A stretch of DNA of 63,590 bases from an uncultured Chthonomonadaceae bacterium (lineage in GTDB: Bacteria; Armatimonadota; Chthonomonadetes; Chthonomonadales; CAJBBX01). The stretch spans positions 1-63,590 of the forward strand of contig CAYNFH010000005.1 in the NCBI GenBank assembly GCA_964396385.1, given 5' to 3'. Made by a program: the position numbers and the translations under genes. Positions 26,173-56,542 of this stretch are shown here, one piece after another (positions within the stretch are counted from its first letter, which is position 1; each line of letters starts with the position of its first letter). Below the pieces are notes generated by a model. The model was not told the origin of the DNA, did not search any database, and saw only the letters and a list, made by a program, of their open reading frames with translations.

Positions 26173-26178
26173 GAATCT

Positions 26179-29236: not shown

Positions 29237-29355
29237 CTGCGGTCGATACACTCAAGCCACCGAACGTTCATAACAGGCGGATTCAGCATAATTGCGCCAC
29301 TCTGCAGCTCTCGGCAGCCTGCATCCGTATCCCGCCTAATCGAGAGGAGATCGCT

Positions 29356-31083: not shown

Positions 31084-31141
31084 GTGATGGGTGATAGGTG
31101 ATGCGTGAGGGCTCCGGGCCTATCACCTATCACCCATCACC
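31083..31141. repeat. heptamer-array palindromic element GGTGATG GGTGATA GGTGATG / 17-nt loop / TATCACC TATCACC CATCACC
   Basis: A 21-bp stem with one mismatch (31083-31103 with 31121-31141). It lies between convergent genes. It contains the porin stop codon region and the last codons KVMGDR-stop of the MFP gene. Confidence 0.85.
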
Positions 31142-32775
31142 TTCTGCTTCGGTTTCCAGGCGCTCGTCGTTACCGCCGCGCCGGGGGAGACGGCGTCCCG
31201 GCCGGTGACGATCACCTCCTCGTTCCCGTGCAGGCCGGAGGTGATCTCGGTCCACTTGCCGTCGTCGAAGCCGGTGGTCACCGGGACCCGCTTCACCTTG
31301 CCGCCTTCTACCGTGAAGACGGACTTGCCGGACTTCTCCACGCCTACCGCCGGGGAGGGAACCGCGATCACCCCGGGATGGTTCTCGAGCGCCACCTTCG
31401 CGACCACGTAGCCGCCGGGAAGCAACCGGTGATCGGCGTTCGGCAGGTCTACTTCGGCCAACAGCGTACGCGTCTTGGGATCCAGGGATGATGAGGTGCG
31501 GGTGATAGACGCGCGGATGGGAGAGTCCGGCTGGGAGAGCGCCGTGAGCGTGACTGGGGTGCCGGGAACAGCCCGGTCCGCCTCCGACTCCGGGACGTGG
31601 ATGTAGACCCGCACGGTGTCCAGGTCCGCCACCGTGACGACCGGCTCCGCGCTCTGGGTGCCGGCGGCGGTCTGGATGAAAGCTCCACGGTCCACGAACC
31701 TTCGGGTCACGGTGCCTGAGAAGGGCGCCTGCAGCCGCGCGTAGGAAGCAAGCACGGTGGAGCGGCCGGCCGCGCTCCGCTGCGCCTCGGCCTGAAGGCG
31801 CGCCTGCTCCGTCTGCGCCGCGACCACCTCACGCTGTCTGCCGCTCACGGCAACGTCGCGGGACGCCATCTCCACCTGCTTGCGCAGCGAGGCCATCTTC
31901 GCCCTGGCGACGGCCACCTCCTGGCGGGTTGCCGCCGCGGATGCCTGCTCCTCCTCGATCTGCCGGTCCGCGGCGCTCACCTGCGCCTGCGCCGCCACGA
32001 CTCGCTTGCGCGCCGCTTCTGCCTCGCTCCGGGCCGCCTGCGTCTTCCCGCGCGCCGCCTCGGCCCGGCTCTCCGCCTCGTCCACCTGCTGGCGGGCTAT
32101 CAGCTTGCTGTCCTTCTGGTACACTCCTCGGTAGCGGTCCGCGGTCACCTCCGCCAGCTTCTGGTCCGCCTGAGCGGCCTGGACCCCGGCTTCCGCCTGC
32201 GTGACCTGTGCGCGGCTCTCCTCCAGCGCCGCCTCCGCCTGCGCCTTGAGCGCCTGCGCCCGTTTTACGGCACCCTCCGCGTGAAGCGCCTGCGCCCGCG
32301 CCGCGGCGACCTCCGCCGGTCCCTGCGCGTAGTCCAGGCGCGCTTTCTCCGCCGCCGCCCGCGCCCGGCGCTCCTCTTCCGCGCTCATGCGCCCGGATGC
32401 GGCATTGGCCTGCGCCGCCTGTGCCGCCGACCGGTACGCGTCCTCCGCCTGTCGCACGTCGGCCGCAAGCTCCGGCGCGCGGATCACCGCCAGGACCTGT
32501 CCGGCCCGCACCCGGTCGCCCTTGTCCACGTAGATGCTGTCCAGGTAGCCGGCCTGCTTGGAGAAGAGGGTGGCCTCCTGCAGTGGGGCGATGTCGCCCG
32601 GCAGGCTGATGAGCCTCGGTACGTCCCGCCGCACGAGGTGCGTGGTCTGCACCGCGACCGGCGGCGCGGCCTGCCCCTGCGGCGTCTGGCCCGCTTCCAC
32701 CCCCGTACCCTTACACCCGCAGAGCAGGACGGCCAGGGGAGGCAGAAGAGCAGTTAGATGGACCCGTCTGATCAT
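31123..32775 (-). CDS. efflux RND periplasmic adaptor (MFP) lipoprotein, operon 2
   Basis: Lipobox LLCGC, long coiled coil, and C-terminal VFTVEGGKVKRVPVTTGF. Paralogous in architecture to 21419..23032. Confidence 0.85.
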   Translation of the reverse strand: MIRRVHLTALLPPLAVLLCGCKGTGVEAGQTPQGQAAPPVAVQTTHLVRRDVPRLISLPGDIAPLQEATLFSKQAGYLDSIYVDKGDRVRAGQVLAVIRAPELAADVRQAEDAYRSAAQAAQANAASGRMSAEEERRARAAAEKARLDYAQGPAEVAAARAQALHAEGAVKRAQALKAQAEAALEESRAQVTQAEAGVQAAQADQKLAEVTADRYRGVYQKDSKLIARQQVDEAESRAEAARGKTQAARSEAEAARKRVVAAQAQVSAADRQIEEEQASAAATRQEVAVARAKMASLRKQVEMASRDVAVSGRQREVVAAQTEQARLQAEAQRSAAGRSTVLASYARLQAPFSGTVTRRFVDRGAFIQTAAGTQSAEPVVTVADLDTVRVYIHVPESEADRAVPGTPVTLTALSQPDSPIRASITRTSSSLDPKTRTLLAEVDLPNADHRLLPGGYVVAKVALENHPGVIAVPSPAVGVEKSGKSVFTVEGGKVKRVPVTTGFDDGKWTEITSGLHGNEEVIVTGRDAVSPGAAVTTSAWKPKQKVMGDR

Positions 32776-32827
32776 GAGCGTTCTCTTGTTCTCGGTATTC
32801 TGACGCAGGGCCGCCCCTCCACAAATC

Positions 32828-32872
32828 CATCGTCGGTCCTCCGTCTCCCGTCATCAGGAGTCATCCGGATGC
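32828..32872. repeat. CCGTC-heptamer half element ending in 10-bp palindrome CATCCGGATG
   Basis: CATCGTCGGTCCTCCGTCTCCCGTCATCAGGAGTCATCCGGATG. It overlaps the RND2 stop codon (32854..32856) and encodes the C-terminus HPDDS-stop. Confidence 0.7.
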
Positions 32873-35800
32873 AGGGAGGCGGTGCCGATCCCGGAACGGG
32901 CCTGCACCAGAGTGAACACGGACGGCAGCAGCGCAAGGGTCGCCAGCGTCGCGGCCAGCAATCCGCCCTCCACTGCGCGGCCCAGCGGCGCGGTCTGCGC
33001 GCCCGCCTCGCCGAAGCCCAGTGCCATCGGCAGCATGCCGGCCATCATGGCCAGGCTCGTCATCAGAATGGGCCGCAGACGGCTGCGCGCCCCCTCCACG
33101 GCCGCATCCTCCGCCGGCATGCCGCCCAGCCGGCTGCGCTCCGCGAACGTCACCAACAGAATGGCATTTGCGACGGCCACTCCAATCGCCATGATAGCCC
33201 CGATGAAGGACTGGACGTTCAGCGTGGTTCCTGTGATCCACAGCGCCAGCACCACGCCTGCCGCCACGGCCGGCACGGACGAGACCACCACCAGTGCCAG
33301 CCGGATGGACTGGAAGTTCGCCGCCAGGACCAGGAAGACTACCACCACCGCCAGCAAGAAACCGGTGCGGAGCCCGTCCATCATGTCCACCATGCCGGGA
33401 ATCTGGCCGCGGATGGCCACGCTTACCTTCGCCGGCGGTAGGCCAGCGCGCGCCACGGCCTGGCTGACGCGTCCCGCCGTCCGGCCCAGGTCCTCGCCCG
33501 CGATGTTCGCATTGATGGTCACTAGCCGCTGCATGTTGTAGCGGTCGTACTCGCCCACCATAGCTCCCGGCGTCACGTCCGCCACGTCCCGCAAGAGCGC
33601 GGTTGCGCCCCCGTGGCCGGTCACGGGCACGTTCCGGATCTGCTCCACGGACGTCATCTTCTGGAGCGGGATGTCCACCTGCACCTGGTAGGCGATGCCG
33701 CTCTTGGGGTCGGCCCAGTAGTTGGGCGCGGTGAACCGGCTGGAGGAGGTGGCGACCGCAGCGGAACGCGCCACGTCCGCCGTGGTCAGCCCGAGGACAC
33801 CGGCGCGCTCCCGGTCCACGTTCACCGCCAGCGTGGGATAGTCCAACGACTGGCCAAAGTGGATGTCGCGCAGGGAGGGGATCCGCTCCATCTCCACGCG
33901 CACTTTGTCCGCGAACGCCTGATTGGCCGGGAGGCTGGGGCCGCTCACCGCGACCTCTACCGGAGTCGGCGAGCCGAAGCTCATTACGCGGCTCACGATG
34001 TCGGCGGGCTCGAAGGAGAACTGTACGTCCGGCATCCGATCCGACAGCGTCCTCCGGAGCCTCTCCTTGAGCGCGTCTATGGCGACCGGCGCGCCCTGCT
34101 TGAGCTGCACCTGGAGCACAGCCTCCTCCGGCCCGCCTGTCCAGAGGTGTATGGTGTTGACCGGATAGGCCGGTGGCTGCGTGCCTACGAAGCCGATGGA
34201 GATGTCCACGTTCTTCGCGCCCGCTTCCTGCTGGATAGCGGCGAGCGTCTGGTCTGCCAGCTCCTCCGTGCGCTCGATGCGTGTGCCGGCGGGCGCGCGG
34301 AGGCGCACCTGGAGCTGGCCGGCGTCCACCCGTGGGAAGATCTCCGTGCCGAGCTGCCGGCCGAGGACCAGCAGGACCAACACGGCGGCGACCGCGTAGG
34401 CCGCCAGGAGCGGCGCGCGGACCGCGATGAGCCGCCGCGACCATCCGGCGTACCGCGCTCGGAGCCTGTCCATGCCGCTCTCCCGCGCCTCCGCGTGCCG
34501 GCCCCTGCGCAACAGCCAGGCGGTCGCCACCGGCACAAAGGTGCTGGAAAGCAGGTAGGAGGCGATCATGGAGAAGCCCACGGCCAGGGAGAGCGGCAGG
34601 AACAGCGCGCGCAGAGCACCCGCCATGAACAGCGCCGGGGTGAAAACCGCCAGCACGCACAGCATGGCCAGCAGCCGCGGCACGGCCGTCTCCGCCGTCG
34701 CGTCCAGCGCGGAGCGCGCCAGGGGCTGCCCGCCCGCCAGGTGCGTGTGGATATTCTCGATGGTGACCGTCGCCTCGTCCACCAGGATGCCGACCGCCAG
34801 CGCAAGGCCGCCCAGCGTCATGATGTTGATGGTCTGTTTGGTGAGCCAAAGCGCGAGCACTGCCGCCAGGATGGCCAGCGGGATGTTCAGCACCACGATG
34901 AGCGCGCTGCGCGGATCCCGCAGGAAAAGGAGCACCATGAGACCGGTGAGGACCGCCCCAAGCAGCCCCTCGAGCACCAGTCCTGAAATGGCGCGCGTGA
35001 CGTATGGTGACTGGTCGAACTGGTAGCTCACCTTCACGTCGTCCGGCAGCACGCCCTGGAACTTGCCCATGTTCTGCTTCACTAGGTCTACTACGGAGAG
35101 CGTGGAGGCGTCGGAGCGCTTGGTCACCGGGATGAATACAGTGCGCCGGCCGTTCACCAGGGCGTAGCCGGTGGGGATGTCCGAGCTGTCCTCCACCGTT
35201 CCGATGTCCCGCACAAAGACCGTCTGCGTGGATCCGGTGCGGACAGGCACGCTCTCCAGGTCCTTGATGTTGGAGACCGTCGCGTTGGTCGGCACGATCG
35301 GCATGAGGTCCCCAATCCGCACGTTCCCGGAGGGGCTGATGGTGTTTGCCTGGCTGATGGCCTGCACCACCTCGTCCGGGGACATGTTGTAGGCGCGCAG
35401 CCGGTCCGGGTCCGCATGGATGACAATGGTGCGGGCGCTGCCGCCGAAGGGTGGCGGAGCGGAGACTCCGGGCAGAGTGGCGAAGAGCGGCCGGACCCGG
35501 TTGAGCGCCAGGTCCTGAATCTCGGCGACGCTTCGCGTGGGGCTGGAGAATACCAGGTCACCCACCGGGACGCTGCCGGAGTCGAACCGCATGATAAAGG
35601 GAGGCACCGTCCCCGGCGGCATGAAGCTGCGCGCCCGGTTCACGTAGGAGACGGTCTCTGCCATCGCCTGCGACATGTCGGTGCCGGGGTGGAACTGCAG
35701 CTTGATGAGCGCGTTGCCCTGGATGGACTTGCTCTCTACGTGCTCGATGCCCGTGATGTAGAGGAAGTGGTACTCATAGTAGTAGGTGATGAACCCTTCC

Positions 35801-36000
35801 ATCTGCGCCGGGTCCACCCCGCCGTAGGGCTGCGCGACGTAGATGATGGGCAGCCCCAGGACCGGCAGGATGTCCCTCGGCATCTGCCGAACGGCCAGCC
35901 CGGCGCCGAGCGCCACGGCCACCAGGGCCACGAGGACCGTTATAGGACGACGCAGCGCTGCAGAGACGAGACTCAAGAAAGACTCCTGCGGATTTTCCAT
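32854..36000 (-). CDS. RND efflux permease, operon 2
   Basis: 1048 aa, RND topology, [20 protein letters not shown]. The start codon ATG 36000 lies inside repeat 35992..36047. Confidence 0.9.
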
Positions 36001-36047
36001 TTTCCATTTTCAATTTGCAATTGCCGGAACCGAATTGAGAATCGAAT
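35992..36047. repeat. ATTTTCC-heptamer palindromic element with GCCGGAACCG core
   Basis: ATTTTCC ATTTTCC ATTTTCA ATTTGCA ATTG CCGGAACC GAATTGAGAATCGAAT. It fills the whole 49-nt gap between the tolC-like stop and the RND2 start. Confidence 0.75.
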
Positions 36048-36049
36048 AT

Positions 36050-37375
36050 CTACCTTGCTTTCCCGTACTTGAGGTAGGTCGCGCCCATCGCCCAGTCCAG
36101 CTCGGCGCGGGCCAGCTCCAGGTCGTAGACGGCATCCACCAACTGAGCGCGGGCGCGGGTGGCCGCCGATTCGGCGGTGACCAGCTCCACATAGCTGCTT
36201 AGCTGGAGCCGGTACCGTTCTCCCGCCTGCTCCATCGAGGCACCCGCGGCCTCCGCCTGCTGCCGGGCGACCTTTACCTGCTCGGTACGAGTCTGCACGT
36301 TGAGCCAGGCCCGGGTGGCCTGGAGCTTAACCGCCTCTTCCAGCTCGCGCCGCGAGGCGAGCGCCGCCTCCCGCCGCTCCCGCTCCTCCGCCACCCGGCC
36401 CTCCACCGCGCCGCCGGTGTAGAGCGGGATAGTGGCCGCGATTCCTACTGCATACTCCTTGTTCTGCGGGATGACGCTGCTGGGGGCGATGGCGCCGACG
36501 CTCGCGATGGAGTCCAGCCTGGGCAAAAGGTCGCTTCGGGCCGCCTGCACGGACTCTCCGGCGGCCCGGGCTTGCAGGTCCGCGGCCCGCAGTTCCGGAC
36601 GCTGCCGCACTGCCAACCGCGTCACCTCTTCCACGGACGGGAGCGGCGCGCGGTCGAGGGCCGCCTCCGGCGTGGGCTCCGGCGAGACCAGCATGAAGCG
36701 CGTGAGCGAGGTCTGGCCCATCGCGTTGTTCAGCGCGGCGAACCCGGCACTCACGACGTTCTGCGCGGAGAGGAGCGCCGTCTGCGCGTCGGCCAGATCC
36801 GCCTGCGCGAGCTGCGCGTCCACGTCCGCCTTCAGCCCCGCCTCCGAGAAGGTGCGCGCCTGCCGCAGGCTCTCTTCGCGCTGGCGTACGCTCTCCTGCT
36901 GCACGGCCACCAACTGCCGCGCCCGCAGCACGCCCAGGTACGCCTCCTGCACCGCCAGGAGTACCGCCGCCTTCTGCGTCTCCTCATCCTGCTCCGCCGC
37001 CTGGACGAGTAGCCGGCGTGAGGCAACCAGGTGCTGCGTGCGGCCGGAGTCGAACAGCGGCTGCACCAGATTGAGGCCACCCCCGAAGTGCTTCTTGAGA
37101 GGGTCGCCGGCGAGTCCCTGCAGCCCGAAGGCGGGGGCGCCGAGCGGCCCGTCCGTGGCCGCCCCCTGGACGGCAATGCTGGGCATCATCCCCGCCTTGG
37201 CCTGCTGGACGCGGGCTCGAGCCTCCGCGGTCTGCCGCTGGACTCTCGCCAGGGCTGGATGGTTCTTGATCGCGGCCTGGAGCGCCTGCTCCAGCGTGAG
37301 CTGCCGCGGCTGTTCCTGGGCCACGGCCGTCATCGCGCAGATGGCGCAGATCACCGCCGCGAAACCGGTGCGCAA
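36050..37375 (-). CDS. TolC-family outer membrane factor, operon 2
   Basis: Signal peptide MRTGFAAVICAICAMTAVAQE, LTLEQALQAAIKNHPALARVQ, and duplicated TolC repeats. Confidence 0.85.
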   Translation of the reverse strand: MRTGFAAVICAICAMTAVAQEQPRQLTLEQALQAAIKNHPALARVQRQTAEARARVQQAKAGMMPSIAVQGAATDGPLGAPAFGLQGLAGDPLKKHFGGGLNLVQPLFDSGRTQHLVASRRLLVQAAEQDEETQKAAVLLAVQEAYLGVLRARQLVAVQQESVRQREESLRQARTFSEAGLKADVDAQLAQADLADAQTALLSAQNVVSAGFAALNNAMGQTSLTRFMLVSPEPTPEAALDRAPLPSVEEVTRLAVRQRPELRAADLQARAAGESVQAARSDLLPRLDSIASVGAIAPSSVIPQNKEYAVGIAATIPLYTGGAVEGRVAEERERREAALASRRELEEAVKLQATRAWLNVQTRTEQVKVARQQAEAAGASMEQAGERYRLQLSSYVELVTAESAATRARAQLVDAVYDLELARAELDWAMGATYLKYGKAR

Positions 37376-40509: not shown

Positions 40510-40518
40510 GAGAATTGA

Positions 40519-40547
40519 GACAGCCCGGGAAGACTTTCCGGGCTGTC
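40519..40547. terminator. 10-bp perfect hairpin between convergent genes (likely bidirectional terminator)
   Basis: GACAGCCCGG(40519-40528) / 9-nt loop / CCGGGCTGTC(40538-40547). Confidence 0.6.
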
Positions 40548-40563
40548 CTAGAAGTGGCGGCGC

Positions 40564-42497: not shown

Positions 42498-42578
42498 GGT
42501 GAGAGGTGAGTGGTGAGAGGCCGGAATCCAAACACCTGAACGCCACAGCCCATCACCAATCACCTATCACCCATCACC
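42498..42578. repeat. mosaic heptamer-array element: GGTGAGA GGTGAGT GGTGAGA / GCCGGAATCC core + spacer / CATCACC AATCACC TATCACC CATCACC
   Basis: The right arm is identical at 20 of 21 nt to the right arm of 31083..31141. The left arm is the reverse complement of the right arm of 9013..9062. The spacer contains CACCTGAAC, the unit of 58135..58196. Confidence 0.8.
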
Positions 42579-42592
42579 TATACAGGAGACCC

Positions 42593-43147
42593 ATGGATAA
42601 ACTGTACCGTCAGATACTGGAGCAGCTAGGGGAGGACCCGGACCGGGAGGGGCTCGCCAAGACACCGCACCGCGCCGCGGAGGCCATGCGGTTCCTCACT
42701 CGCGGCTATAACGAGGACCCTCTGGCGATCCTTCGTGCCGCCGTGTTCGAGGAGCCCTACGATGACATGGTCATCATCCGGGACATCGAGTTCTTCAGCC
42801 TCTGCGAACACCATATTCTTCCATTCTTTGGAAAGGTCCATATCGGGTATCTCCCGGCGGGCCGGATTGTGGGAATCAGCAAGCTGGCGCGCGTGGTGGA
42901 CGTCTTCGCCCGTCGGCTTCAGGTGCAGGAGCGCATGACAGTCCAGATAGGCAGCGCCATACTGGAGGCTTTGCGGCCCAAGGGAGTGGGTGTGGTTATT
43001 GAGGCGCGCCATCTCTGCATGATGGCGCGCGGCGTGCAGAAGCAGAGCAGCAAGGTGACCACCAGCGAGATGCTGGGCTCGTTCCGAGAAGACAGGAGCA
43101 CCCGCGAGGAATTCCTGAACCTGCTTCATTTGGAGAGGAACGTCTGA
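42593..43147 (+). CDS. folE: GTP cyclohydrolase I
   Basis: [70 protein letters not shown] 42593 has CAGGAG upstream. The track start 42506 lies in the repeat. Confidence 0.9.
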
Positions 43148-43154: not shown

Positions 43155-43283
43155 GGATGAAGGATGAGGGATGAAGGATGAATCCGGAACCCGGCCCTCG
43201 ACGGACCGATTCCAGTCGCCGTGACTCCCGTCCTGAAGCGTCGGAACAGCAGTCTGGAATTCATCCCTCATCCTTCATCCCTC
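43155..43283. repeat. composite element: ~28-nt GGATGAR-heptamer inverted arms enclosing a nested GACGG/CCGTC-type unit
   Basis: The left arm GGATGAAGGATGAGGGATGAAGGATGAATCC and right arm GGAATTCATCCCTCATCCTTCATCCCTC pair over about 27 bp (2 mismatches, 1 wobble, 1 bulge). The 65-nt spacer resembles 21353..21390. It lies between convergent folE and an oxidoreductase gene. Confidence 0.8.
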
Positions 43284-44278
43284 TAAAGCTGCACCACCCT
43301 CTTCTCCCGCTCCGACTGATAGCCGCCGAGAATGACCTTCAGGACGGTGATTCCCTCCTTCAGGCTCTGCTCCGGGGTCTTGTTCTGCTCGATGCACTCC
43401 ACGAAGTGCTTTATCTCCCCCACGAAGCCGTTCTCCGGCGTGAGCTCCGCCTTCTCTCGTTCGCCCTCCAGCGGCTGGAAGTACAGGTCGTTGCCGCGCC
43501 CGTAGATCTGGCCCTTCTCCCCGATGGCGTGGATCTGCCAGTGGCCGTTGGGAGCCGGATAGCCCCAGGAGGTCTGGAGGGTGCCCACCGCCCGGTTTTC
43601 GAACCGCACCATCGTCTGGGCGGTGTCCTCCGCGTCCAGGTTCGGCTGGCTGTAGTTGTCGGAAAAGCTCACCACCTCCTTGGGCTCGGAGTTGGCGATG
43701 GAGATGAGCATGTAAGTGGGGTGGTAGCCGGTGTCCAGCGCACAGCCACCGCCCGCCTCCGCGGCGGAGCCTCGCCAGCCCCACTGCGCCTTGCCGCCGC
43801 GATCCTTGATCAGGAAACAGTCGACCGTCCGGAGGCTGAAGACGCGCCCCAGCTTTCCTTCCTGGATCCAGCGCCGCGCAGTCCGTGGCGCCGGCTCGAA
43901 CATCTGGTTGTGCGCGCACATCAAGATGACGCCGTTGCTCTTCACCGCCGACTCGATGTCCTTCGCCTCCTCCAGCGAGGTGCAGAGCGGCTTCTCCGTG
44001 AGCACGTGCTTGCCCGCTTCTGCCGCCTGTACAATGGCGTCGCGGTGCAGGCGGTGCGGCAGGGCGACGTCCACCGCGTCCACCACGTCCTCCGCCAGCA
44101 TCTGGCTCCAGTCGGTGTAGACCCGCGGATCGGATCCCACCTCCTGCGCCCTTCGGTTCGCGTTCGCCTCGTTTACGTCGCAGGCGGCTGTCACGGTGGC
44201 GCGCCCCTCCACCGCCTTCCAGCCCGGGAGGTGCGCCCCCATGATCCCGCCGCAACCAACCATTCCAACCCGTATCAC
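43283..44278 (-). CDS. Gfo/Idh/MocA-family NAD(P)-dependent oxidoreductase
   Basis: MIRVGMVGCGGIMGAHL Rossmann start and EKPLCTSLEEA motif. 331 aa. Confidence 0.85.
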   Translation of the reverse strand: MIRVGMVGCGGIMGAHLPGWKAVEGRATVTAACDVNEANANRRAQEVGSDPRVYTDWSQMLAEDVVDAVDVALPHRLHRDAIVQAAEAGKHVLTEKPLCTSLEEAKDIESAVKSNGVILMCAHNQMFEPAPRTARRWIQEGKLGRVFSLRTVDCFLIKDRGGKAQWGWRGSAAEAGGGCALDTGYHPTYMLISIANSEPKEVVSFSDNYSQPNLDAEDTAQTMVRFENRAVGTLQTSWGYPAPNGHWQIHAIGEKGQIYGRGNDLYFQPLEGEREKAELTPENGFVGEIKHFVECIEQNKTPEQSLKEGITVLKVILGGYQSEREKRVVQL

Positions 44279-44339: not shown

Positions 44340-44422
44340 GGAGTATTGGAGTCATGGAGTATTGGAGTGGTTTCCCGGAATCCGGATTTCTTCACTCCAT
44401 TTCTCCACCACTCCATCACTCC
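44340..44422. repeat. octamer-array palindromic element GGAGTNNN x4 / TTCCCGGAATCCGGATTTCTTC / ACTCCNNN x4
   Basis: Read directly. GGAGT cores pair with ACTCC cores, giving 5-bp helices separated by 3-nt variable spacers. It sits in a divergent promoter region, not after a stop codon. Confidence 0.85.
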
Positions 44423-44445
44423 TTCAGCAATCGGGGAGTAACACT

Positions 44446-45922: not shown

Positions 45923-46701
45923 AACGGGGCTTGCGCTCGCGTATTGTCGCGCGGGTCTCCGCGGTACTTTCTGTGCGGCGTGTACCAGAGGAGCTCGCCT
46001 ATCTGGTAGTAGCCAACGGAAGAATAGAGCTTGGCGCCGGTGTGGCTGGCCGTTAGCACGTTCGCCAACATGCCCGCTTCGCGGTCATCCCGCAACATGC
46101 GCGCGAGGAGCGAGCGCCCGATTCCCCGGCGGCGGTACTCCGGCTTCACGTACATGCTGGAGCACCAGGCGCCGCCGCACACGGGGATGCTCTGCACCCA
46201 GCCCACCGGCACCTCCCCGTCCACCGCCATGTACTGCCGCAGCAGTGGCGGCTCCGCGTTCAGGCGCTCTGGAGAGATGGGCCCGCTTCGCTGCGCCTTC
46301 GCTAAACGGTCGGCCTGCTTCGGCGTGGTAACCCGCTCTACCGGCAGCGACTCCGGGACCCGCGGAACAGCCGTCAGGGAATGGACCATCATCGGCTCCG
46401 TGGTCCCCAGGCGGTAGCCCAGGTCCTTGAACCCGGCTCGGATTGAGCTATCCGGCTCGCCTGCGGCACGGATGAAGGAGATGGAGTACCGGCCGCGGGC
46501 GTGCCGGCGGACGATGGCGTCCACGTCGGCCGGAGGGATGCCGTGGGCCACATACTCCTCGCCGCGGTAGTCCCCGCTTTTGCGCGGCGCGTCGCGTAAC
46601 GCCCACAGCTCTTCCACACGCTCCACCTGGTACGGGTGCGTGCGGCTCCGTTGAAACGCAAAGCCCCGAACAAAAACCTCGATGGCATCCTCAAGGTTCA
46701 T
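45904..46701 (-). CDS. GNAT-family N-acetyltransferase
   Basis: VKPEYRRRGIGRSLLARMLRDDREAG (motif A, Q/RxxGxG/A). The ATG overlaps the GH42 stop (ATGA). Confidence 0.75.
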   Translation of the reverse strand: MNLEDAIEVFVRGFAFQRSRTHPYQVERVEELWALRDAPRKSGDYRGEEYVAHGIPPADVDAIVRRHARGRYSISFIRAAGEPDSSIRAGFKDLGYRLGTTEPMMVHSLTAVPRVPESLPVERVTTPKQADRLAKAQRSGPISPERLNAEPPLLRQYMAVDGEVPVGWVQSIPVCGGAWCSSMYVKPEYRRRGIGRSLLARMLRDDREAGMLANVLTASHTGAKLYSSVGYYQIGELLWYTPHRKYRGDPRDNTRAQAPLSSRTE

Positions 46702-48836
46702 TCCGCTGCGCCGCCCTCCGTCAGCACCGTGCCTCCGTACGGATGCAGGGTTACGCTGCCGGCCACCGGCGCGCAGGTCAGCGCGTCGGAGAAGGCGACC
46801 GTGCCCAGGTCTACCGTCGCCTCCTCCGGCGTAAAGTTCAGCAGGAATAGCCAGGAGCGGCCGTCTTCGGCCACCCGCCGCTGTGCGGAGACGCCCTCTG
46901 GCAGCACGGCGGGCGCGGCGCGCCTCAGCGCCAGCTCCCGCGCCAGGGCGCCCAGGAAGTCATCACAGAAGCGCGCGTCATTGCGGGACGCGACGTAGTA
47001 GGCGCGGCCCATTGCGGTCTCCTTCACCGTAAGCGCCGGCTGCCCTGCGTAGTAGTCCTGCCCGTACGTGGCAAGGACCCGCGCGCCGGTGCTGACGGGT
47101 GACGGTTGACGGTTGACGGACCCTGATCCGTCCGTCCTCCGTCCTCCGTCCTCCATCGTATCCGCATGAACCACATCGCAATACTGCCTGGCCACATATA
47201 CTCCGCGCAGGCCCAGCACCTCGCCCTCGGGAGTGGGCAGCACCGTCTGCCGCTGGTGGTCATGGAGCACGTCCGTCTCCTCCGCCCAGACTCCCAGAAC
47301 GGGCCGCAGGGGACCGGGAAAGCCTCCCAAGAAGCAGAGGTCGTGCTCGTCCACGATTCCGGTCAGATAGGTGGCGACGAAGATGCCACCGCGCTCCACG
47401 AAGGCGCCGATGCGCTCGGCGGCGCCCGGGCGCAGCATGTAGAGCATGGGCGCGACCAGCAGCCGGTACCCGGAGAGCTCCACCGTGGAATCGATCACGT
47501 CCACAGGAATGCCGCGCCGCCAGAAGGGGCGGTAGTGCGCCTCGCACGTGGCGCGATACGCCTTGTCGTTGTTGCGCGGCCCCTTAGCCTGCTGGATGCC
47601 CCACGCGTTCTCCCAGTCGTAGATGAGCGCGACCTCCGCCTCCACGCGCGATCCAACCGCCGACTCCAGGCGCTCCAAGTCCGCGCCCAGCTCGGCCACC
47701 TCTCGGAAGATGCGGTTGTGCTCATGCCCCACGTGGTCCACAATCGCCCCGTGGAACTTCTCGCTCCCGCCCCGCCCCTTCCGCCACTGGAAATAGAGCA
47801 CGCCGTCGGAGCCGTGCGCCACTGCCTGCAGGCCGTTGATGCGGTTCAGGCCCGGCCGCCGGGGCCGGCTCACGCCGTGCCAGTTTGTGACGCTGGGGGT
47901 GGTCTCCATCAGCAGCCACGGCTTCCCGCCTTTTAGCGCCCGGTTGATGTCGTGCACAAAGGCCACGCCGCACGCCACGTCCACGTCGCTCTGCTCGCCG
48001 TGCCACCCGGGATAGCTGTCCCAGCACACTACGTCCAGCGGCTTCGCCAGGCGCCAGTAGTCATACGCGTCGTAGGTGCCCATGAGGTTGGTGGTCACCG
48101 GCACATGGGGTGAGTGGCGGCGGAGCGGCGCGATCTCGTTCTCCAGGAAGGTTATGCACTGGTCGGTCATGAACCGCTTCCAGTCCAGCTCCATGCCGTG
48201 CACGTTCTGGTCAACGGCGGTGATCTGATCCCATGCGGTGATAGTGTGGCTCCAGAAGGCGGACCACCAGGCACGGTTCAACGCGTCCAGGTCGCCGGAA
48301 TACCGCTGGCGCAGCCAATCGCGAAAGGCCGCCATGCAGAGGTCGCAGTAGCAGTAGCCGCCGTACTCGTTGGAGACGTGCCAGAGCTGGAGCGCGGGGT
48401 GCTTGCCGTACCGCTCGGCGAGGCGCTCGTTGACGGCGCGGACCTTCTCACGATAGACGGGCGAGGTGAGGCAGTGGTTGTGCCGGCCGCCGTGCGGATC
48501 CCGCAGGCCGTTGGGCTGCACGCGCCGCACCTCCGGGTACTTGAGAGACATCCAGGCCGGTTTAGAGCCGGAGGGCGTAGCCAGGTTTACCCGCACTCCG
48601 TTTGTATGCAGCCGCTCCATGGTCTGGTCCAGCCAGTCGAAGGTGTACCGGCCCTCCTCGGGCTCCAGGGCTGCCCAGGCGAAGATGCCGAGGCTCACGC
48701 TGTTGACGTGAGCGAGCCGCATGAGCCGGAGGTCCTCCTCCAGCACGTCCGGCCTATCGAGCCACTGGTCCGGGTTATAGTCCGCCCCGTAGAGCAAGTG
48801 CAGGAAGAGGGGCTTGTCGCTATTGCCTGTAGCCAA
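46698..48836 (-). CDS. GH42 beta-galactosidase carrying an in-frame repeat insertion
   Basis: YGADYNPDQW and HVSNEYGGYCYCDLCMAAFRDWL (GH42 Cys cluster). TTG start with GGAGGA 6 nt upstream. The residues MEDGGRRTDGSGSVNRQPSPVS are encoded by repeat 47094..47157. Confidence 0.85.
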   Translation of the reverse strand: MATGNSDKPLFLHLLYGADYNPDQWLDRPDVLEEDLRLMRLAHVNSVSLGIFAWAALEPEEGRYTFDWLDQTMERLHTNGVRVNLATPSGSKPAWMSLKYPEVRRVQPNGLRDPHGGRHNHCLTSPVYREKVRAVNERLAERYGKHPALQLWHVSNEYGGYCYCDLCMAAFRDWLRQRYSGDLDALNRAWWSAFWSHTITAWDQITAVDQNVHGMELDWKRFMTDQCITFLENEIAPLRRHSPHVPVTTNLMGTYDAYDYWRLAKPLDVVCWDSYPGWHGEQSDVDVACGVAFVHDINRALKGGKPWLLMETTPSVTNWHGVSRPRRPGLNRINGLQAVAHGSDGVLYFQWRKGRGGSEKFHGAIVDHVGHEHNRIFREVAELGADLERLESAVGSRVEAEVALIYDWENAWGIQQAKGPRNNDKAYRATCEAHYRPFWRRGIPVDVIDSTVELSGYRLLVAPMLYMLRPGAAERIGAFVERGGIFVATYLTGIVDEHDLCFLGGFPGPLRPVLGVWAEETDVLHDHQRQTVLPTPEGEVLGLRGVYVARQYCDVVHADTMEDGGRRTDGSGSVNRQPSPVSTGARVLATYGQDYYAGQPALTVKETAMGRAYYVASRNDARFCDDFLGALARELALRRAAPAVLPEGVSAQRRVAEDGRSWLFLLNFTPEEATVDLGTVAFSDALTCAPVAGSVTLHPYGGTVLTEGGAAE
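47094..47157. repeat. GACGGNN x4 / CCCTGA / NNCCGTC x4 palindromic element located inside a coding sequence
   Basis: GACGGGT GACGGTT GACGGTT GACGGA CCCTGA TCCGTC CGTCCTC CGTCCTC CGTCCTC. GACGG pairs with CCGTC in every unit. Confidence 0.8.
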
Positions 48837-49867: not shown

Positions 49868-51511
49868 TCACTCCTCACGTATCGTCACCATGGCGCCGGC
49901 GCGAACACTCTCGGCACGTGAGTTCCGCCCGCTTGGCCAGTGGACGGTAACGGTGGCGGAGGTGGCGCTACCAATGCCGACGTGCACACGGGGATCCGAT
50001 GAGGCAAAGAAGGACCCGTCGGCGTGGCAAATGTGTACCTGCTTGCGCCCGCCCGCTTCCACAGTCACGATGGCGCCGTACCCGTCGCGGTTGCTCTTCT
50101 TGCCTGTGAGCCGCACAGAGATGGAATTGCCGGTTGTTGACGTTTCGTTGTGGAGGAGCAGGGGAGGCCCTTCTGCGTCCGCGACAAGCGCATCAACCCG
50201 GCCGTCGTTGTCGAAGTCTCCGGTAGCGAGGCCGCGACCAACTATTGGGCGCAGCAGGTCCGGGCCTGCGCTTGCACTCAGGTCCGTGAACCGCTTCCCG
50301 CCTTCGTTCCGGAAAAGCAGGGTCGGCTCCCGATAGGCGCGGGACGGCTCGTATGCCACGATGTTATCCGCTATGTAACCGTTCGCGAACATGATGTCCA
50401 GGTAGCCGTCATTATCGAAGTCCAGGAGTTTCGCGCCGAACGACAGGTACCTCATGGCCGGCCCCGCTACTCCGTACGCCGGACTCTCATCCAGGAACGT
50501 GTGCTCACCCTGGTTGATAAGCACGAGCTTGTTCTCCAGGCTGAACGTGCCCACGACCATATCCGGGCGGCCGTCGCCATTTATGTCTCCGTAGTCGACG
50601 CCCATCCCACCGTAGGGCTTACCGTTCTCTGTATATGCGGCGCCTGCCTCTTCGCCAATCTCCTTGAACCGGCCGCCGCGGTTCAGGAAGAAGTCGCTCT
50701 TTACCTCGTCATCTGCCAGGTACAGACTCGGGTGCCCGACCCCGTCCGGGTCGAAGAAGACTGCACCGAGCACTTTGCCGGTCGCCGCGTTCAGTCCAAC
50801 CAGGCGGGTGACGTCCCTGAAATGTCCTCCGCCGTCGTTGTGGTAGAGGACCGGGTGTTCGGCATCATATACCGTGGGTGAGCACGCCGTCTCGAAGTCT
50901 TTGACGTGGCAGAGCTGGACAGAATCAGGGCCGAAACGGCAGTAATTGCCGATGAGAAGGTCCAGTTTGCCGTCGTTATCGTAGTCGCCGAAGGCGCAAG
51001 CGCTGCCCCAGGGCTGGGGAGGGATTCCAGCTTCGCGGCTCACGTCGCGAAACGACTTCCCGCGTTCATTGTGGAGTAGAGCACCCCCGCGGTATGCAGA
51101 CAGGTAGATATCTTCATACCCGTCGTTGTCATAGTCTCCCACGGCCACGCCCATCCACCAATTGGTCGGCAGGGAAGCGATTCCCGTCTGGGCAGTCACA
51201 TTCGTGAACTTCCCACGTCCGTCCCCGCGGTAGAGCGCAACGCGTTGAGACATGAGAAGTACGTCCAGGTTGCCATCACTGTCGTAGTCGAGGAAGGCAC
51301 AGCCACCCCCCGGACCCTGCAAAATGTTGATAGGCCGCTTCCCAGGAATGGAGAAGCGGAAAGATATCCCGCACGATGGCACAACGTCCGTGAAACGAGC
51401 CCTGGGTTGGCCTCCCGGCCCGTTTTGCGCGCCTGAGGCCGGCCGGCTGTGGCCGCATCCGGCCAGCGCTCCGGCAGTTAGGAGCACCAGGAGAGTGTTA
51501 TGGGCTGACAC
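49868..51511 (-). CDS. CRTAC1-family lipoprotein (FG-GAP/VCBS + ASPIC/UnbV), cassette 2
   Basis: Lipobox LAGC, repeated DYDSDGNLDVLL / DYDNDGYEDIYL / DYDNDGKLDLLI units, and C-terminal ...FASSDPRVHVGIGSATSATVTVHWPSGRNS. Confidence 0.85.
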   Translation of the reverse strand: MSAHNTLLVLLTAGALAGCGHSRPASGAQNGPGGQPRARFTDVVPSCGISFRFSIPGKRPINILQGPGGGCAFLDYDSDGNLDVLLMSQRVALYRGDGRGKFTNVTAQTGIASLPTNWWMGVAVGDYDNDGYEDIYLSAYRGGALLHNERGKSFRDVSREAGIPPQPWGSACAFGDYDNDGKLDLLIGNYCRFGPDSVQLCHVKDFETACSPTVYDAEHPVLYHNDGGGHFRDVTRLVGLNAATGKVLGAVFFDPDGVGHPSLYLADDEVKSDFFLNRGGRFKEIGEEAGAAYTENGKPYGGMGVDYGDINGDGRPDMVVGTFSLENKLVLINQGEHTFLDESPAYGVAGPAMRYLSFGAKLLDFDNDGYLDIMFANGYIADNIVAYEPSRAYREPTLLFRNEGGKRFTDLSASAGPDLLRPIVGRGLATGDFDNDGRVDALVADAEGPPLLLHNETSTTGNSISVRLTGKKSNRDGYGAIVTVEAGGRKQVHICHADGSFFASSDPRVHVGIGSATSATVTVHWPSGRNSRAESVRAGAMVTIREE

Positions 51512-52733
51512 CGGCCTGTTCGAGGGCGTGGATCTCCCGCCGCGCCGTCTTCACGTCCAGCCCGCGGTCCACCATCTCTTCGTACTGAACCATGGCGTTT
51601 TGCGGGATTCCCTTGCGCAGATACCAGCGGGCGAACTCCAGCCGCAGGTTCGCATCCATGGGGTGCGCATTGATGCGGGCATTGTACTGGCGTACCTTAG
51701 CGGTATCGGCATAGACCTGGTCATGGCGCTTGATAGCTGCCGTGGCGGCAGCCGAGTTGCCCAGCGCGCGGTTCACACGCGCGAGCAGAAAGAGCGTGTC
51801 CGGATTGCCGGGCGCGATGGCGTCCGCTCGCTGAAGATGGACGAGCGCTTCTTTCCACCGGTGCTGGTTCAGGTAAGCTCGCCCCAACAGCATCTCCGCG
51901 GCGGAGTGGTCTCGCCGGCGCAGCTCGCCGGCCCGTTTCAACACGTCGGTGAGCGCCGATCGCGCGGCATCGTAGTCCTGCGGCGATGTCGCGGTCAGGA
52001 ACAGAGCCTCGCCCAGATACAGCTTGCCCTCCAGTACCTGCGGGAACCGCCGGACGATAATTCGCGCGTCAGCCAGGGCGTCGTCCAGCCTCTTTTCGTT
52101 TACTTCCGCCTGATAGAGGCCCACATAGGGCCACGGAGAGTTCGGCATCAGGTCGCGAGCTTTCAGAAAAGATGCTTCGCCCTCTCCCGGTATGCCTTGA
52201 TCCAGCGAAAGGTCCCCCCGCAATGCCCAGGCATTTCCAGACCGGGGATCGATCTTAGTGGCGGTATCGGCGTCGTGCCATGCCATCTCACTGCGATTCG
52301 CATTGCGGCGAAGAGCAGCCCGCTCCATGTAGGCCCGCGCTTCCCTCGGATGTCGCGCGATATAGCTGGAGAGAATAGCATCGGCAGGACGAAATCCACC
52401 GAATTCGTAGATGGCGCGAGCCCACCCGACCCAGTCGGTCAGGCGGTCCGGTTCGAGCTCGGCGGCATGCTGATAGGCCTTTGCGGCGCGCGCCCACTGT
52501 TCGGTGGCGAGGGCACGTGAGCCGAGCTGCTCAAAGATCTCAGCTTCGTTCAGGTGCGTGGGTGCGGCCGCCGCGAGCTCCTCGATGCTGGCGTGTTCGA
52601 TCCAACGCCGGTGTGACCTTACCTGCCAGGCGCGGACAATGCCGGCGCCCGCACAGAGGACCAGAAGAAAGAGGAGAATGAAAAGACGCAGGCGCATGGG
52701 TGACTTCCCGGATATAACGCTCTGAGAGGGCAT
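51498..52733 (-). CDS. TPR-repeat protein, cassette 2
   Basis: TM/signal RLRLFILLFLLVLCAGAGIV followed by TPR-like units. TAGAAT lies 8 nt upstream of ATG 52733, so the mRNA may be leaderless. Alternative start ATG 52697. Confidence 0.7.
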   Translation of the reverse strand: MPSQSVISGKSPMRLRLFILLFLLVLCAGAGIVRAWQVRSHRRWIEHASIEELAAAAPTHLNEAEIFEQLGSRALATEQWARAAKAYQHAAELEPDRLTDWVGWARAIYEFGGFRPADAILSSYIARHPREARAYMERAALRRNANRSEMAWHDADTATKIDPRSGNAWALRGDLSLDQGIPGEGEASFLKARDLMPNSPWPYVGLYQAEVNEKRLDDALADARIIVRRFPQVLEGKLYLGEALFLTATSPQDYDAARSALTDVLKRAGELRRRDHSAAEMLLGRAYLNQHRWKEALVHLQRADAIAPGNPDTLFLLARVNRALGNSAAATAAIKRHDQVYADTAKVRQYNARINAHPMDANLRLEFARWYLRKGIPQNAMVQYEEMVDRGLDVKTARREIHALEQAGVSP

Positions 52734-53951: not shown

Positions 53952-54063
53952 TGGTTTCTCCTTGGAGCCTGAAGACGATTGCTCTACGCACTGCTAATGA
54001 TGATGCCGGGGAGATCGAGAAGCAGTACAGCCAGTATAAAGTATTCTTAATCGGAGTGCAACT

Positions 54064-54100
54064 GATTTAGTGGTAAATCCGCCTGATTTAGCGATAAATG
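54064..54100. promoter_or_regulatory. two tandem 16-bp palindromes (GATTTAGTGGTAAATC and GATTTAGCGATAAATG), candidate LacI operators, next to TATAAT 54124..54129
   Basis: Read directly. Centre-to-centre spacing is 21 bp. TATAAT ends 6 nt before ATG 54136, which suggests a leaderless lacI-like mRNA. Confidence 0.5.
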
Positions 54101-54135
54101 TTTAGCTGAACGTCCTGTCGGCGTATAATCGGCCT

Positions 54136-55203
54136 ATGCGGCGCAGCACTGCTCCTACCCTCGCCGACGTCGCGCAGCAAGCCGGAGTCACCGCGATGGT
54201 GGCTTCGGTAGTGCTCAACGGCGCGCGCTCCTCTACCCGCGTCTCCGCGGCCACGCGGGCGCGCGTCCAGGAGGCCGCCGCCCAGCTCGGCTACCGCCGT
54301 AATGCCCTGGCGTTCGGCCTCACCCGCAGCCGGATCGATACTCTCGGGGTGGTCGCAACCGTGGTCGGGGAGGATATCAACCTCTACTTCCTGGAGCTGC
54401 TCAGCGGAATCCTGAGTGCGGCCGTGGAGCGCGGCCAGTCCACCAAAGTTTTTTCGCTTGCCGACTGGAAGCAGGACGCGGGCCGCATCCCAGGATTCTG
54501 CGACGGCCGCGTGGACGGGATCATCCTGATCGCGCCTTCCTTGCCGGATGATGTAGCGCTTGCGCTCCCGGCCCATACGCCGTTTGTAGCGATCCACTGC
54601 GACCGGCCCCTGGCGGGCATCCCGAACATCGGGATAGACGATGAGGGGGCAGCATACAGGATTACGAGCGACCTGTTGACCCGCGGTCACCGGCGGATCC
54701 TCCACTTCTCCGGCGACGCCGACATCGCCAGCGCGGCACAGCGGCTGAAAGGCTACCGTCGCGCGCTGGCGGACGCGGGCATCCCGTGGGATCCGTCACT
54801 CGTGCTGCCGGGCGGGTACTACATCGGGTCCGGGCGGGAGAGCATGCTGCGAGTGCTGCGGGAGTTTCCCGGCCAGGCTATGCCCTCGGCCGTGTTCTGC
54901 GCCAGCGACGCCATCGCATACGGCACGATGGAGGTGCTGGCGGAGCAGGGCGTGCGCGTGCCGGACCAGATCTCCGTTGTCGGGTTCGATGACGTGCTTC
55001 TGGCCCGCACCACGCGGCCGCCGCTCACCACCGTGCGCCAGCCCTTCCGCGCCATGGGGCGCCGCGCGGTGGAGATCCTGCTGGCCCGCATTGCGCACGG
55101 TGACGACCACACGGCCGATGCGGAGGAAGATTCGCGCGCCGAGCTCTTCCCGGTGGAGATAGTGGAGCGCGAGTCCGTCGGGCCGCCAAGGAGCGACGGA
55201 TGA
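54136..55203 (+). CDS. LacI-family transcriptional regulator (second copy, divergent from pseudopilin)
   Basis: MRRSTAPTLADVAQQAGVTAMVASVVLNGARS HTH plus a sugar-binding core. The stop codon lies in repeat 55195..55231. Confidence 0.85.
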   Translation: MRRSTAPTLADVAQQAGVTAMVASVVLNGARSSTRVSAATRARVQEAAAQLGYRRNALAFGLTRSRIDTLGVVATVVGEDINLYFLELLSGILSAAVERGQSTKVFSLADWKQDAGRIPGFCDGRVDGIILIAPSLPDDVALALPAHTPFVAIHCDRPLAGIPNIGIDDEGAAYRITSDLLTRGHRRILHFSGDADIASAAQRLKGYRRALADAGIPWDPSLVLPGGYYIGSGRESMLRVLREFPGQAMPSAVFCASDAIAYGTMEVLAEQGVRVPDQISVVGFDDVLLARTTRPPLTTVRQPFRAMGRRAVEILLARIAHGDDHTADAEEDSRAELFPVEIVERESVGPPRSDG

Positions 55204-55231
55204 CGGAGGACGGGAGACCGACGGAGGTGAC
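55195..55231. repeat. GACGG-heptamer array (GACGGAT GACGGAG GACGGGA GACCGAC GGAGGTGAC), half element
   Basis: Its reverse complement matches the CCGTC arrays at 21366..21396 and 32831..32855 unit for unit, but in a different order. Confidence 0.65.
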
Positions 55232-56426: not shown

Positions 56427-56542
56427 GATTTTCCATTTTCCATTTTTCAGTTTTCAATTCTCAATTTGAATTCCGGAGTGTTGGAAGACTCGTGGCCCAC
56501 CGTTCTGCAATGGAAAACCGAAAACCGAAAACTGAAAATCGG
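56427..56542. repeat. NNTTTTC-heptamer palindromic element with GAATTCCGGAG core (same family as 35992..36047)
   Basis: The left array is GATTTTC CATTTTC CATTTTTC AGTTTTC AATTCTC AATTTGA ATTCCGG. The right array is GGAAAAC CGAAAAC CGAAAAC TGAAAATC. The right arm encodes MENRKPKTENR of the kinase. Confidence 0.8.

Follow-up and report, generated by a model that had tools for sequence, protein, structure and literature searches.

Palindromic heptamer-array elements, small hairpin repeats at gene boundaries in a Chthonomonadales contig

The DNA analysed here is a 63,590-nt stretch (contig CAYNFH010000005.1, in the following called the window) from an uncultured Chthonomonadaceae bacterium of the order Chthonomonadales, phylum Armatimonadota. 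About 93% of the window is coding, and 4.3 kb of spacer makes up the intergenic 6.8%. Pfam searches on the ~48 open reading frames (ORFs) returned ordinary chromosomal genes (RND efflux, ada/ogt, folE, LacI-type regulators, GGDEF, histidine kinases, TPR + FG-GAP, GH42, GH127); no tRNA was found in the window, and Rfam 15 gave no match anywhere in it at the gathering score. Among these genes lies a family of 12 hairpin elements of 50-130 nt, plus three lone arrays. All elements follow one plan: units of 7 or 8 nt are arrayed on the 5' side, a short centre follows, and on the 3' side stands an array complementary to the first. The family is genuine and far beyond chance, with a conserved architecture, a common core and hairpin potential. 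These elements are lineage-specific, small, non-coding hairpin repeats, for which we propose the name palindromic heptamer-array elements. They occur at a density of about one per 5 kb and sum to ~890 nt, which is about one fifth of the spacer DNA.

To detect such structures, a strict search was used in which an exact 5-mer had to occur at least three times at a spacing of 7 or 8 nt, with two or more copies of the reverse complement, spaced in the same way, no more than 150 nt further on. Six loci were found (31083, 42498, 43155, 44340, 47094 and 56427; elements are named by their first position), and none of 30 dinucleotide-preserving shuffles gave any. The window holds 46 single chains of three or more units, against 0-2 per shuffle. 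A first-pass annotation of this DNA, made from the letters alone, had proposed that the arrays exceed what composition would give, and this comparison with composition-matched shuffles, run on the window, bears it out. Tandem Repeats Finder (TRF) placed a period-7 or period-8 array at each of the full copies listed in that annotation. In the whole window it reported 26 arrays of these periods, made of head-to-tail units in at least three copies, as defines the STRR class (short tandemly repeated repetitive elements) and long simple sequence repeats (SSRs).

That all of this could be chance low-complexity sequence or an assembly artefact, the latter a concern of the first-pass annotation, is a practically negligible prospect. 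The contig is of metagenome type and short repeats are prone to mis-assembly; however, besides the shuffles, each element spans less than one read pair and has unique coding sequence on its flanks, and the architecture is also present in independent assemblies (L002, L061, L016, L050 and L103, see below). Moreover, one intragenic copy keeps a 712-residue GH42 ORF in frame, which together with the shuffles refutes this explanation.

The members are listed here with their units, context and folding, where z compares the predicted fold to shuffled sequence.

44340-44422, the exemplar: four GGAGTNNN, centre TTTCCCGGAATCCGGATTTC, four complementary NNNACTCC-type units; between the divergent starts of a GFO/IDH/MocA gene (in the following GFO; GTG 44278, minus strand) and an erythromycin-esterase gene (ATG 44446, plus strand); RNA -43.8 (plus) and -46.8 (minus) kcal/mol, z -6.6 and -7.9, DNA z -5.6.
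9013-9062: four GGATGAG, ATCCGGA, then CCCTCACC TCTCACC, an arm from another unit family; co-directional, between an ada/alkA-like gene (stop TGA at 9025, within the array) and ogt (ATG 9073); weak fold, z -2.1.
12498-12575: 8-mer member with four GGCGANNN, apex GAATCCGGA, then CTCGCCGC/GTCCCCGA twice; between the stop of a TPR gene (12580) and the probable true start of an FG-GAP lipoprotein gene (~12517); hairpin of ~90 nt, z -2.5 to -2.9.
16347-16405: GACCACG/GACGGCG four times, GGAATCCGGA, GTCGTCC GTCGTCT GTGGTCT; between the stop of a PilZ gene (16404) and a LacI-family gene, both on the minus strand; z -5.1.
21344-21396: GGACGGACGG, ATTCCG (core in reverse orientation), GTCATCC GTCTCCC GTCATCC GTCC; in a convergent gap, directly after a canonical terminator hairpin; weak fold, z -1.3.
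31083-31141: perfect 21-bp palindrome of GGTGATN units, centre CGTGAGGGCTCCGGGCC without GAATCC; between the convergent stops of an SLH-porin gene (31083) and a HlyD-family gene (31123), both within the arms; z -8.0 (RNA) and -10.6 (DNA).
35992-36047: three to four ATTTTCC, AATTGCCGGAACCGAATTG, weak right arm; intra-operon, between an OEP stop (36050) and an AcrB start (ATG 36000, within the array); z -0.45, no better than shuffles.
42498-42578: three GGTGAGN, GGCCGGAATCC plus 22 nt, four ATCACCN; between the stop of a RibD_C gene (42491) and the folE start (~42593); z -5.1 (RNA) and -4.8 (DNA).
43155-43283: four GGATGAR, ATCCGGAACCCGG plus an insert of ~65 nt, three YTCATCC; between the convergent stops of folE (43147) and GFO (43283); z -4.5 (RNA) and -4.9 (DNA).
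47094-47157: four GACGGNN, ACCCTGATCC, four GTCCTCC-type units, coreless; intragenic, within a GH42 beta-galactosidase ORF (46698-48836, minus strand); z -4.9.
56427-56542: five to six ATTTTCN, TTGAATTCCGGAG plus 33 nt, four GAAAACY; between the stop of an ADH-family gene (56422) and a PAS/GAF histidine-kinase gene, the right arm lying over the likely ATG 56510; z +0.26, no better than shuffles.
58135-58196: 4.5 copies of GGTGTTCA, GGTTCGGAATCC, then the short right arm TGAACACC CGGTGTTCAC; between convergent stops at 58126 and 58193; z -2.9.
10857-10877, plus strand, lone array: three TTCAACC at the junction of two minus-strand genes; z +1.8, no structure.
32828-32872, plus strand, lone array of the GTCNTCC unit family: GTCCTCC GTCTCCC GTCATCA, between a HlyD-family start region and an AcrB stop; local fold z -2.7, not an inverted array.
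55190-55231, plus strand, lone array: GACGGAT GACGGAG GACGGGA and further units with no partner arm, spanning the stop of a LacI-family gene and the start region of an ADH-family gene; z -0.5.

The exemplar reads exactly as first annotated, and the original membership list stands for the full copies, all of which carry TRF arrays. Four further entries found no support in their folding, which is no better than that of shuffles: the core-only sites 37441 and 16931 and the array-only sites 10859 and 55195 were rejected as members. The supposed half or degenerate copy at 12523-12564 is actually part of the full 8-mer member 12498-12575, with its hairpin and apex. A further statement, that copies sit in most intergenic gaps, was overstated, since ~12-13 of the ~32 gaps (~40%) are occupied. 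Regarding the arms, the unit does differ between copies, with at least six unrelated arm units among the elements and the centre alone in common; on the other hand, the families GGATGAR, GGTGAKN, GGANGAC/GTCNTCC and ATTTTCN each recur at 2-5 loci. Thus, of the picture of a fixed core with freely varying arms, the common core remains, whereas the arms can be grouped by recurring units and the core is missing from two strong members.

The arrays also touch on gene calling. The longest-ORF starts of 15160-16374, 10865-12583, 42506-43147 and 56492 run into arrays and are probably overlong. In the case of GFO (43283-44278, minus strand), the public call P0121 (319 amino acids) starts 12 codons downstream of GTG 44278, the start position used by GFO orthologues (gtgata/atgata). 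On the other side of the exemplar, the Shine-Dalgarno sequence GGGGAGT of the erythromycin-esterase gene (44433-44439) contains the left-arm unit GGAGT (44340-44368) and is complementary to the right-arm ACTCC units, which end 10 nt upstream. No promoter-like site was found in the exemplar.

Folding was compared with shuffled sequence for RNA and DNA. Six elements (44340, 16347, 31083, 42498, 43155 and 47094) fold clearly better than their shuffles, with z between -4.5 and -8.0 for RNA and between -3.2 and -10.6 for DNA. The earlier expectation that the copies fold better than shuffled sequence holds for these six and only weakly or not at all for five others (9013, 21344, 35992, 56427 and 58135), in which a long left array faces a short or degenerate right array and z lies between +0.3 and -2.9. 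The ladder of 5-bp helices that had been predicted for the hairpins is present in 44340, 42498 and 47094, where complementarity is limited to the 5-nt heart of each unit and the 2-3 spacer bases are homogeneous within each arm. Such a pattern would be expected if slippage homogenised each arm separately under a pairing constraint. In the case of 31083, 43155 and 16347, the stems are instead continuous over ~18-21 bp, and the arms are mirror-perfect even at the variable positions (largely so in 16347, whose stem includes G-U pairs). Pairing in shifted registers, also part of the original prediction, is possible: a shift by one unit in the exemplar gives -34 or -27.5 kcal/mol compared to the best value of -43.8 kcal/mol, and shifted pairings stay stable at a cost of ~4-16 kcal/mol per unit.

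As to composition, 10 of the 12 elements combine a purine/G-rich 5' arm with a C-rich 3' arm, by symmetry on both strands, and the reverse polarity is confined to the ATTTTCN family. Many copies carry TGA in all three frames at the hairpin entry on either side; this is a trivial by-product of composition and was not used as evidence.

The placement of the elements relative to genes suggests a reading in which they are selected cis-regulatory elements, acting either as multivalent protein-binding sites on RNA or DNA or as stem-loops in the transcript. The latter might serve termination independent of a U-tract, protect 3' ends, make the parts of an operon differ in stability, or control translational coupling and access to the start codon. 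The elements are flush with stop and start codons: several arms contain a stop (9025, 31083, 31123 and 58193) or a start (36000, ~12517 and probably 56510). Complementarity is retained in the 5-nt hearts although the spacers drift, a sign that pairing is under selection, and a register shift in the exemplar, at a cost of ~10-16 kcal/mol, might in principle release an ACTCC unit that would mask the downstream GGGGAGT. Similar roles have been proposed, though not demonstrated, for STRR and TAACTGA repeats (PMC2670836, PMC4679880, bioRxiv 10.1101/2022.06.06.494920). Nevertheless, we consider a selected regulatory role unlikely. When both strands were folded as RNA, the transcribed strand was preferred neither in energy nor in G-U pairs, and the antisense strand folds better in 16347, 42498 and 56427; with no preference for the sense strand, an RNA-level function gains no support. 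The contexts are heterogeneous, being convergent for 21344, 31083, 43155 and 58135, co-directional for 9013, 12498, 16347, 35992, 42498 and 56427, divergent for the exemplar 44340 and intragenic for 47094. Although stems are present, no T-run follows any of the 12 elements on either strand, as an intrinsic terminator would have, whereas ordinary canonical terminators occur elsewhere in the window (40510-40563 and ~21300). A pure terminator role is therefore insufficient, as first annotated: U-tracts are missing, one copy lies between divergent starts and one inside an ORF. Furthermore, the units vary from locus to locus and, at one and the same gene, from relative to relative, so that there is no single binding motif; the closest relatives lack elements at that gene, and no Rfam family matches.

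The intragenic copy deserves closer description. The GH42 ORF around it is intact, with 712 amino acids and a GC content at third codon positions (GC3) of 0.87. Element 47094 is translated as approximately TMEDGGRRTDGSGSVNRQPSPVST, a 24-codon (72-nt) in-frame insertion at ~47085-47160. An alignment with nine homologues of 58-68% identity places it cleanly between the conserved CDxIHAE and GAxVLATY blocks, between the trimerisation and the C-terminal domain of the enzyme, and the 24 residues are missing from all nine. The best GH42 match in a search of 5.8 billion proteins reached 65%. Since each heptamer step shifts the frame by one, most steps of a gradual growth of the arrays would break the gene. 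The arrival of a complete 72-nt element in one insertion is thus the more parsimonious history, and it favours the view that the elements can move as complete units.

The centres of the elements point to a common feature of a different kind. Six of the 12 centres contain TCCGGA, where its frequency in the window would predict 0.24, and eight of the 12 contain GAATCC. Element 56427 has the variant GAATTCC, and 31083, 47094 and 35992 have no core. The longer motif GAATCCGG occurs at 13 sites in the window, six of them within the 1.9% of the sequence that the copies listed by the first-pass annotation cover, and it is ~4x rarer in 389 kb of related Chthonomonadales DNA than in the window. GAATCC is plus-oriented in seven centres and minus-oriented in one (21344), which agrees with the orientation bias first described; with n=8 (two-sided binomial ~0.07, our own estimate) the bias is suggestive only. 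The orientation is independent of the direction of the flanking genes, as 16347 and 12498 lie between minus-strand genes and nevertheless carry a plus-oriented core. Seven of eight cores in the same chromosomal orientation, whatever the direction of transcription, fit a DNA-level process better than an RNA-level one. Two other explanations of the core were tried and rejected. As a genome-wide over-represented word of the HIP1 type it fails, Markov z-scores being small and the excess confined to element centres. As a terminator top common to the order it fails as well, given that CCGGRAWYCGG is rare in relatives and GAATCCGG 4x rarer there.

A more far-reaching idea, which we regard as quite improbable, is that an enzyme specific to single strands or hairpins (HUH/Y1-like, or a tyrosine recombinase), with its gene in another part of the genome, would recognise the hairpin centre together with the ladder geometry, so that the elements would form a new class of structure-defined mobile DNA. 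If so, slippage could change the arm sequence freely, which inverts the logic of REP/RAYT (see below), and the 7:1 core orientation would reflect insertion into the template of one replication strand.

The comparison with relatives was centred on GFO. Its relatives in GTDB genomes are metagenome-assembled genomes (MAGs) of Chthonomonadales with 73-82% amino-acid identity; the best identity was 85% in JGI metagenomes and 86% in the 5.8-billion-protein collection. For AcrB, a look-up of the exact protein gave no hit. Gene order around GFO was compared in the relatives' loci L001-L015 and L058-L068 (73-86% protein identity). None of 15 window genes around GFO (33-53 kb) lies within 10 kb of GFO in any Chthonomonadales relative. 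Thus, of the orthologous intergenic regions whose comparison had been suggested, only the immediate 3' flank of GFO is comparable. The closest relatives, L109 (86%) and L001 (82%), have no 7/8-nt arrays beside GFO, and an ordinary hairpin lies downstream. Three relatives at a greater distance do have arrays: directly after the GFO stop, L061 carries four CGTGATN, an 80-nt insert and four NATCACG, L002 an octamer GTAAATGR array plus its complement, and L010 four AGCGAGG as a direct array only. The absence of arrays in the closest relatives and the other units in L002, L010 and L061 indicate a recent, lineage-specific gain. The overall density is likewise patchy: period-7/8 arrays number 4.1 per 10 kb in the window, 5.2 in L002, 3.3 in L061 and 0-2.4 in other Chthonomonadales loci. 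L002 belongs to the MAG JBBROJ01, and among the array-free relatives are JBMFSQ01 and GCA_030155005.1. Outside the order, the architecture was found once each in L016 (Anaerolineae, 11329-11413), L050 (Methylomarinum, 2248-2344) and L103 (a metagenome contig, 5922-6009), in each case as a hairpin, perfect or nearly so, with tandem arrays of 7-8-nt units for arms. It is therefore phylogenetically scattered and not unique to the Chthonomonadales lineage. Two metagenome contigs of another phylum with a GC content of ~40%, L093 (166-2825) and L094 (481-6489), are packed with long tandem heptamer or octamer arrays built from many different units (AACTAAG, AAGTTAA, GCTCATG, AGTAATC, GTGGAGAA, AACAACT), often adjacent to one another and just upstream of start codons; these are STRR-like.

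Similarity between elements also bears on how they came to be distributed. The left halves of 9013 and 43155 have GCAAGGATGA...GGATGAATCCGGA.CC in common (36/38 positions) and are unrelated beyond, and 35992 and 56427 have the left array GGATTTTCCATTTTCCATTTT in common. In L061, two CGTGATN elements 10.5 kb apart (457-578 and 10999-11134) are homologous over their entire ~135 nt, with near-identical arms (33/36 aligned positions on either side), conserved inner ends and a diverged middle, and are in this respect like a miniature inverted-repeat transposable element (MITE). Both L061 copies open with TGATTCGTG; at 10999 its TGA is the GFO stop codon, and the element may thus supply or overlap this stop.

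Altogether, we prefer the reading in which the elements are hairpin repeats, selfish or neutral, that were dispersed as pre-formed units and whose arms then evolve by 7-nt replication slippage, and we give it a probability of roughly 0.45. The clean insertion into GH42, the subfamilies, the recent gain beside GFO, the enrichment and prevailing orientation of the core and the absence of a sense-strand preference speak for it, as does the fact that ~20 of the 26 period-7/8 arrays touch the 6.8% of the window that is intergenic. Several observations weigh against it. No transposase, RAYT/IS200-like protein, recombinase or integrase was found among the ~48 window ORFs, so the search for a mobilising enzyme that the first-pass annotation had proposed came back empty for the window. 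There are no target-site duplications at the 12 elements, only 42498 being flanked on both sides by AGGAGA, which is Shine-Dalgarno-like, and no termini are common across subfamilies. A GTAG head is missing at 21 of 24 element ends and inconsistent in position at the others. Element 9013 is chimeric, with a GGATGAG left arm and a CTCACC right arm, unlike the product of simple copy-and-paste. To these may be added the five lopsided elements with weak folding, the array-free and core-like hairpins of relatives described next, the restriction of the genome data to the 63.6 kb of the window, and the lack of any relative closer than 86% (GFO) in the genome, metagenome and protein collections searched for a presence/absence comparison.

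The hairpins at the 3' end of GFO are central to a possible but doubtful alternative, in which the elements grew in place with no mobility at all. Here a small GC-rich 3' hairpin of the CCGG-AAT-CCGG type would have been extended by repeated 7-8-nt slippage in one arm, which quasi-palindrome correction, templated by the hairpin, then copied into the other, and the similarity of units at separate loci would be due to convergence in mutation or composition, or to ectopic gene conversion. In the insert of 43155, the portion next to the core, GTCGAGGGCCGGGTTCCGGA, matches the GFO 3' hairpin of L013 (z 5.5 vs shuffles), and array-free hairpins stand at the GFO 3' end in L064 (GGCCGGAATCCGGCC) and L005 (GGCCGGGATTCGGCC). 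The core of 43155 hence looks ancestral at this site, which favours growth in place. The same holds for the missing target-site duplications, conserved termini and transposase, for the four genomes with different units at the same gene end, and for the lopsided 9013, 58135 and 35992, which resemble intermediate stages; slippage is moreover accepted as the source of heptanucleotide SSRs (PMC4679880). What such growth explains poorly is the in-frame 72-nt insertion in GH42, hard to build by 7-nt steps without inactivation. Nor does it readily account for the L061 copies, which are alike internally as well as in their arms, or for the window pairs, which agree in the order of variants within the arrays and in the array-core junction. 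In most copies the units are unrelated to the core stem, and GAATCCGG is ~4x denser in the window than in relatives, so the core is not simply the common terminator top of the order.

Under the preferred reading of dispersal as pre-formed units, we infer the following course. Tandem 7-8-nt units would arise and change in copy number by replication slippage, for which 7 nt appears to be a favoured unit in many bacteria. The arms would remain able to pair in the 5-nt heart of each unit for one of two reasons: propagation or tolerance requires the hairpin, or one arm is mirrored onto the other by template switching on the folded strand. Each arm would be homogenised separately, leaving the 2-3 spacer bases free to differ. 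Complete elements would then be copied to new sites, mostly short spacers directly beside stop or start codons and now and then a permissive loop within an ORF, by machinery presumably encoded outside the window, and this copying would produce the subfamilies with a common array and array-core junction. The TCCGGA/GAATCC centre may be the part that the machinery recognises, or else the remnant of a small GC-rich seed hairpin. The effect on the host is probably neutral or generic, as a stable stem-loop at a gene end could protect 3' ends or insulate neighbours.

Some other features of the window are recorded here. A direct repeat TGATTTAG(T/C)G(G/A)TAAAT occurs twice at 54040-54110, upstream of the LacI-family gene at 54136, and is operator- or promoter-like. 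In the divergent spacer between an extracytoplasmic function (ECF) sigma factor gene (28476-29129, minus strand) and the SLH-domain porin gene (29356-31083, plus strand), CTTAAC/GTTAAC is found four times in ~45 nt (29190-29250). Two paralogous RND efflux operons (OEP - AcrB - HlyD-type adaptor) are located at 21419-27945 and 31123-37375, both on the minus strand, and two pairs of TPR and FG-GAP/ASPIC genes at 10865-13776 and 49868-52733.

Bacterial tandem repeats of heptanucleotides were noted decades ago, the first STRR reports dating from about 1990. The present family offers a clean and dense case, with mirror-image pairs around a common centre and sister lineages that at the same gene have no arrays, other arrays or a bare hairpin. 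On the practical side, gene starts and stops in Chthonomonadales MAGs are easily mis-called where arrays overlap them. Hairpin-forming 7-bp repeats were described as 'not unusual' in filamentous cyanobacteria, e.g. in the hupS-hupL spacer, where transcript stabilisation or translational coupling were suggested as roles but not demonstrated (PMC2670836). Heptamer arrays beside start codons are known from Beggiatoaceae, Cyanobacteria and Bacteroidetes (PMC4679880) and from Nostoc (bioRxiv 10.1101/2022.06.06.494920). As relayed in PMC4679880, Mrazek et al. 2007 found heptanucleotides to be the commonest class of long SSR, with polymerase slippage and a ~7-nt footprint proposed. No literature on such repeats in Chthonomonas or Armatimonadota was found.

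Of the known systems, STRR and long SSRs (5-11 nt) likewise come with tandem 7-nt units, several unit families per genome, a location in intergenic spacers near start or stop codons, hairpins in some cases (PMC2670836) and a presumed origin by slippage (PMC4679880). The differences are that the host here is a high-GC member of the Armatimonadota, while STRR in the strict sense belong to heterocyst-forming cyanobacteria, that inverted paired arrays are the rule here and not the exception, and that the elements have the common TCCGGA/GAATCC centre, 8-nt units as well, and one copy in frame within an ORF. The first-pass annotation had set the family apart from cyanobacterial STRR, which it took not to be organised as inverted arrays around a common core; this contrast was too sharp, because hairpin-forming STRR are known (PMC2670836) and the architecture also occurs in L016, L050 and L103. 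The TAACTGA repeats known from marine Beggiatoaceae, Cyanobacteria and Bacteroidetes (MacGregor 2015, PMC4679880) are alike in their arrays of 2-6 heptamers beside starts and their patchy phylogenetic distribution, and unlike in consisting of one fixed heptamer, with 169 direct sets vs 1 indirect, compared to the many units, inverted pairs and common centre found here.

Repetitive extragenic palindromes (REP), with the related bacterial interspersed mosaic elements (BIME) and REPIN elements, are mobilised by REP-associated tyrosine transposases (RAYT, IS200-like Y1). They are likewise dense, short extragenic palindromes, typically at gene 3' ends or between convergent genes, with no target-site duplication and a possible strand-orientation bias. 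Where REP keeps one arm sequence and a GTAG head, however, the arms here differ and no such head motif was found, nor is there a RAYT gene among the window ORFs; on this point the original contrast with classical REP/BIME was correct. MITEs (Correia, Nezha, BOX-type) resemble the elements as non-coding sequences of 50-135 nt with inverted ends and long hairpins in or next to genes, and the L061 copies, with common ends, terminal inverted repeats of ~30 nt and a diverged middle, come closest to them. Unlike MITEs, the elements lack target-site duplications and a family-wide terminal sequence, their terminal inverted repeats are tandem arrays, and no parent insertion sequence was found in the window or in the relatives' 20-kb loci. 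Integron attC sites, with their R''/L''-L'/R' core sites, form a one-directional cassette array beside intI, whereas here no integrase is present among the window ORFs, no attC R sites (RYYYAAC ... GTTRRRY) were seen at the element ends, and the flanking genes are housekeeping genes in both orientations. In conclusion, the family is an unusual hairpin-forming, dispersed variant of the bacterial tandem heptamer repeats and not a separate category.

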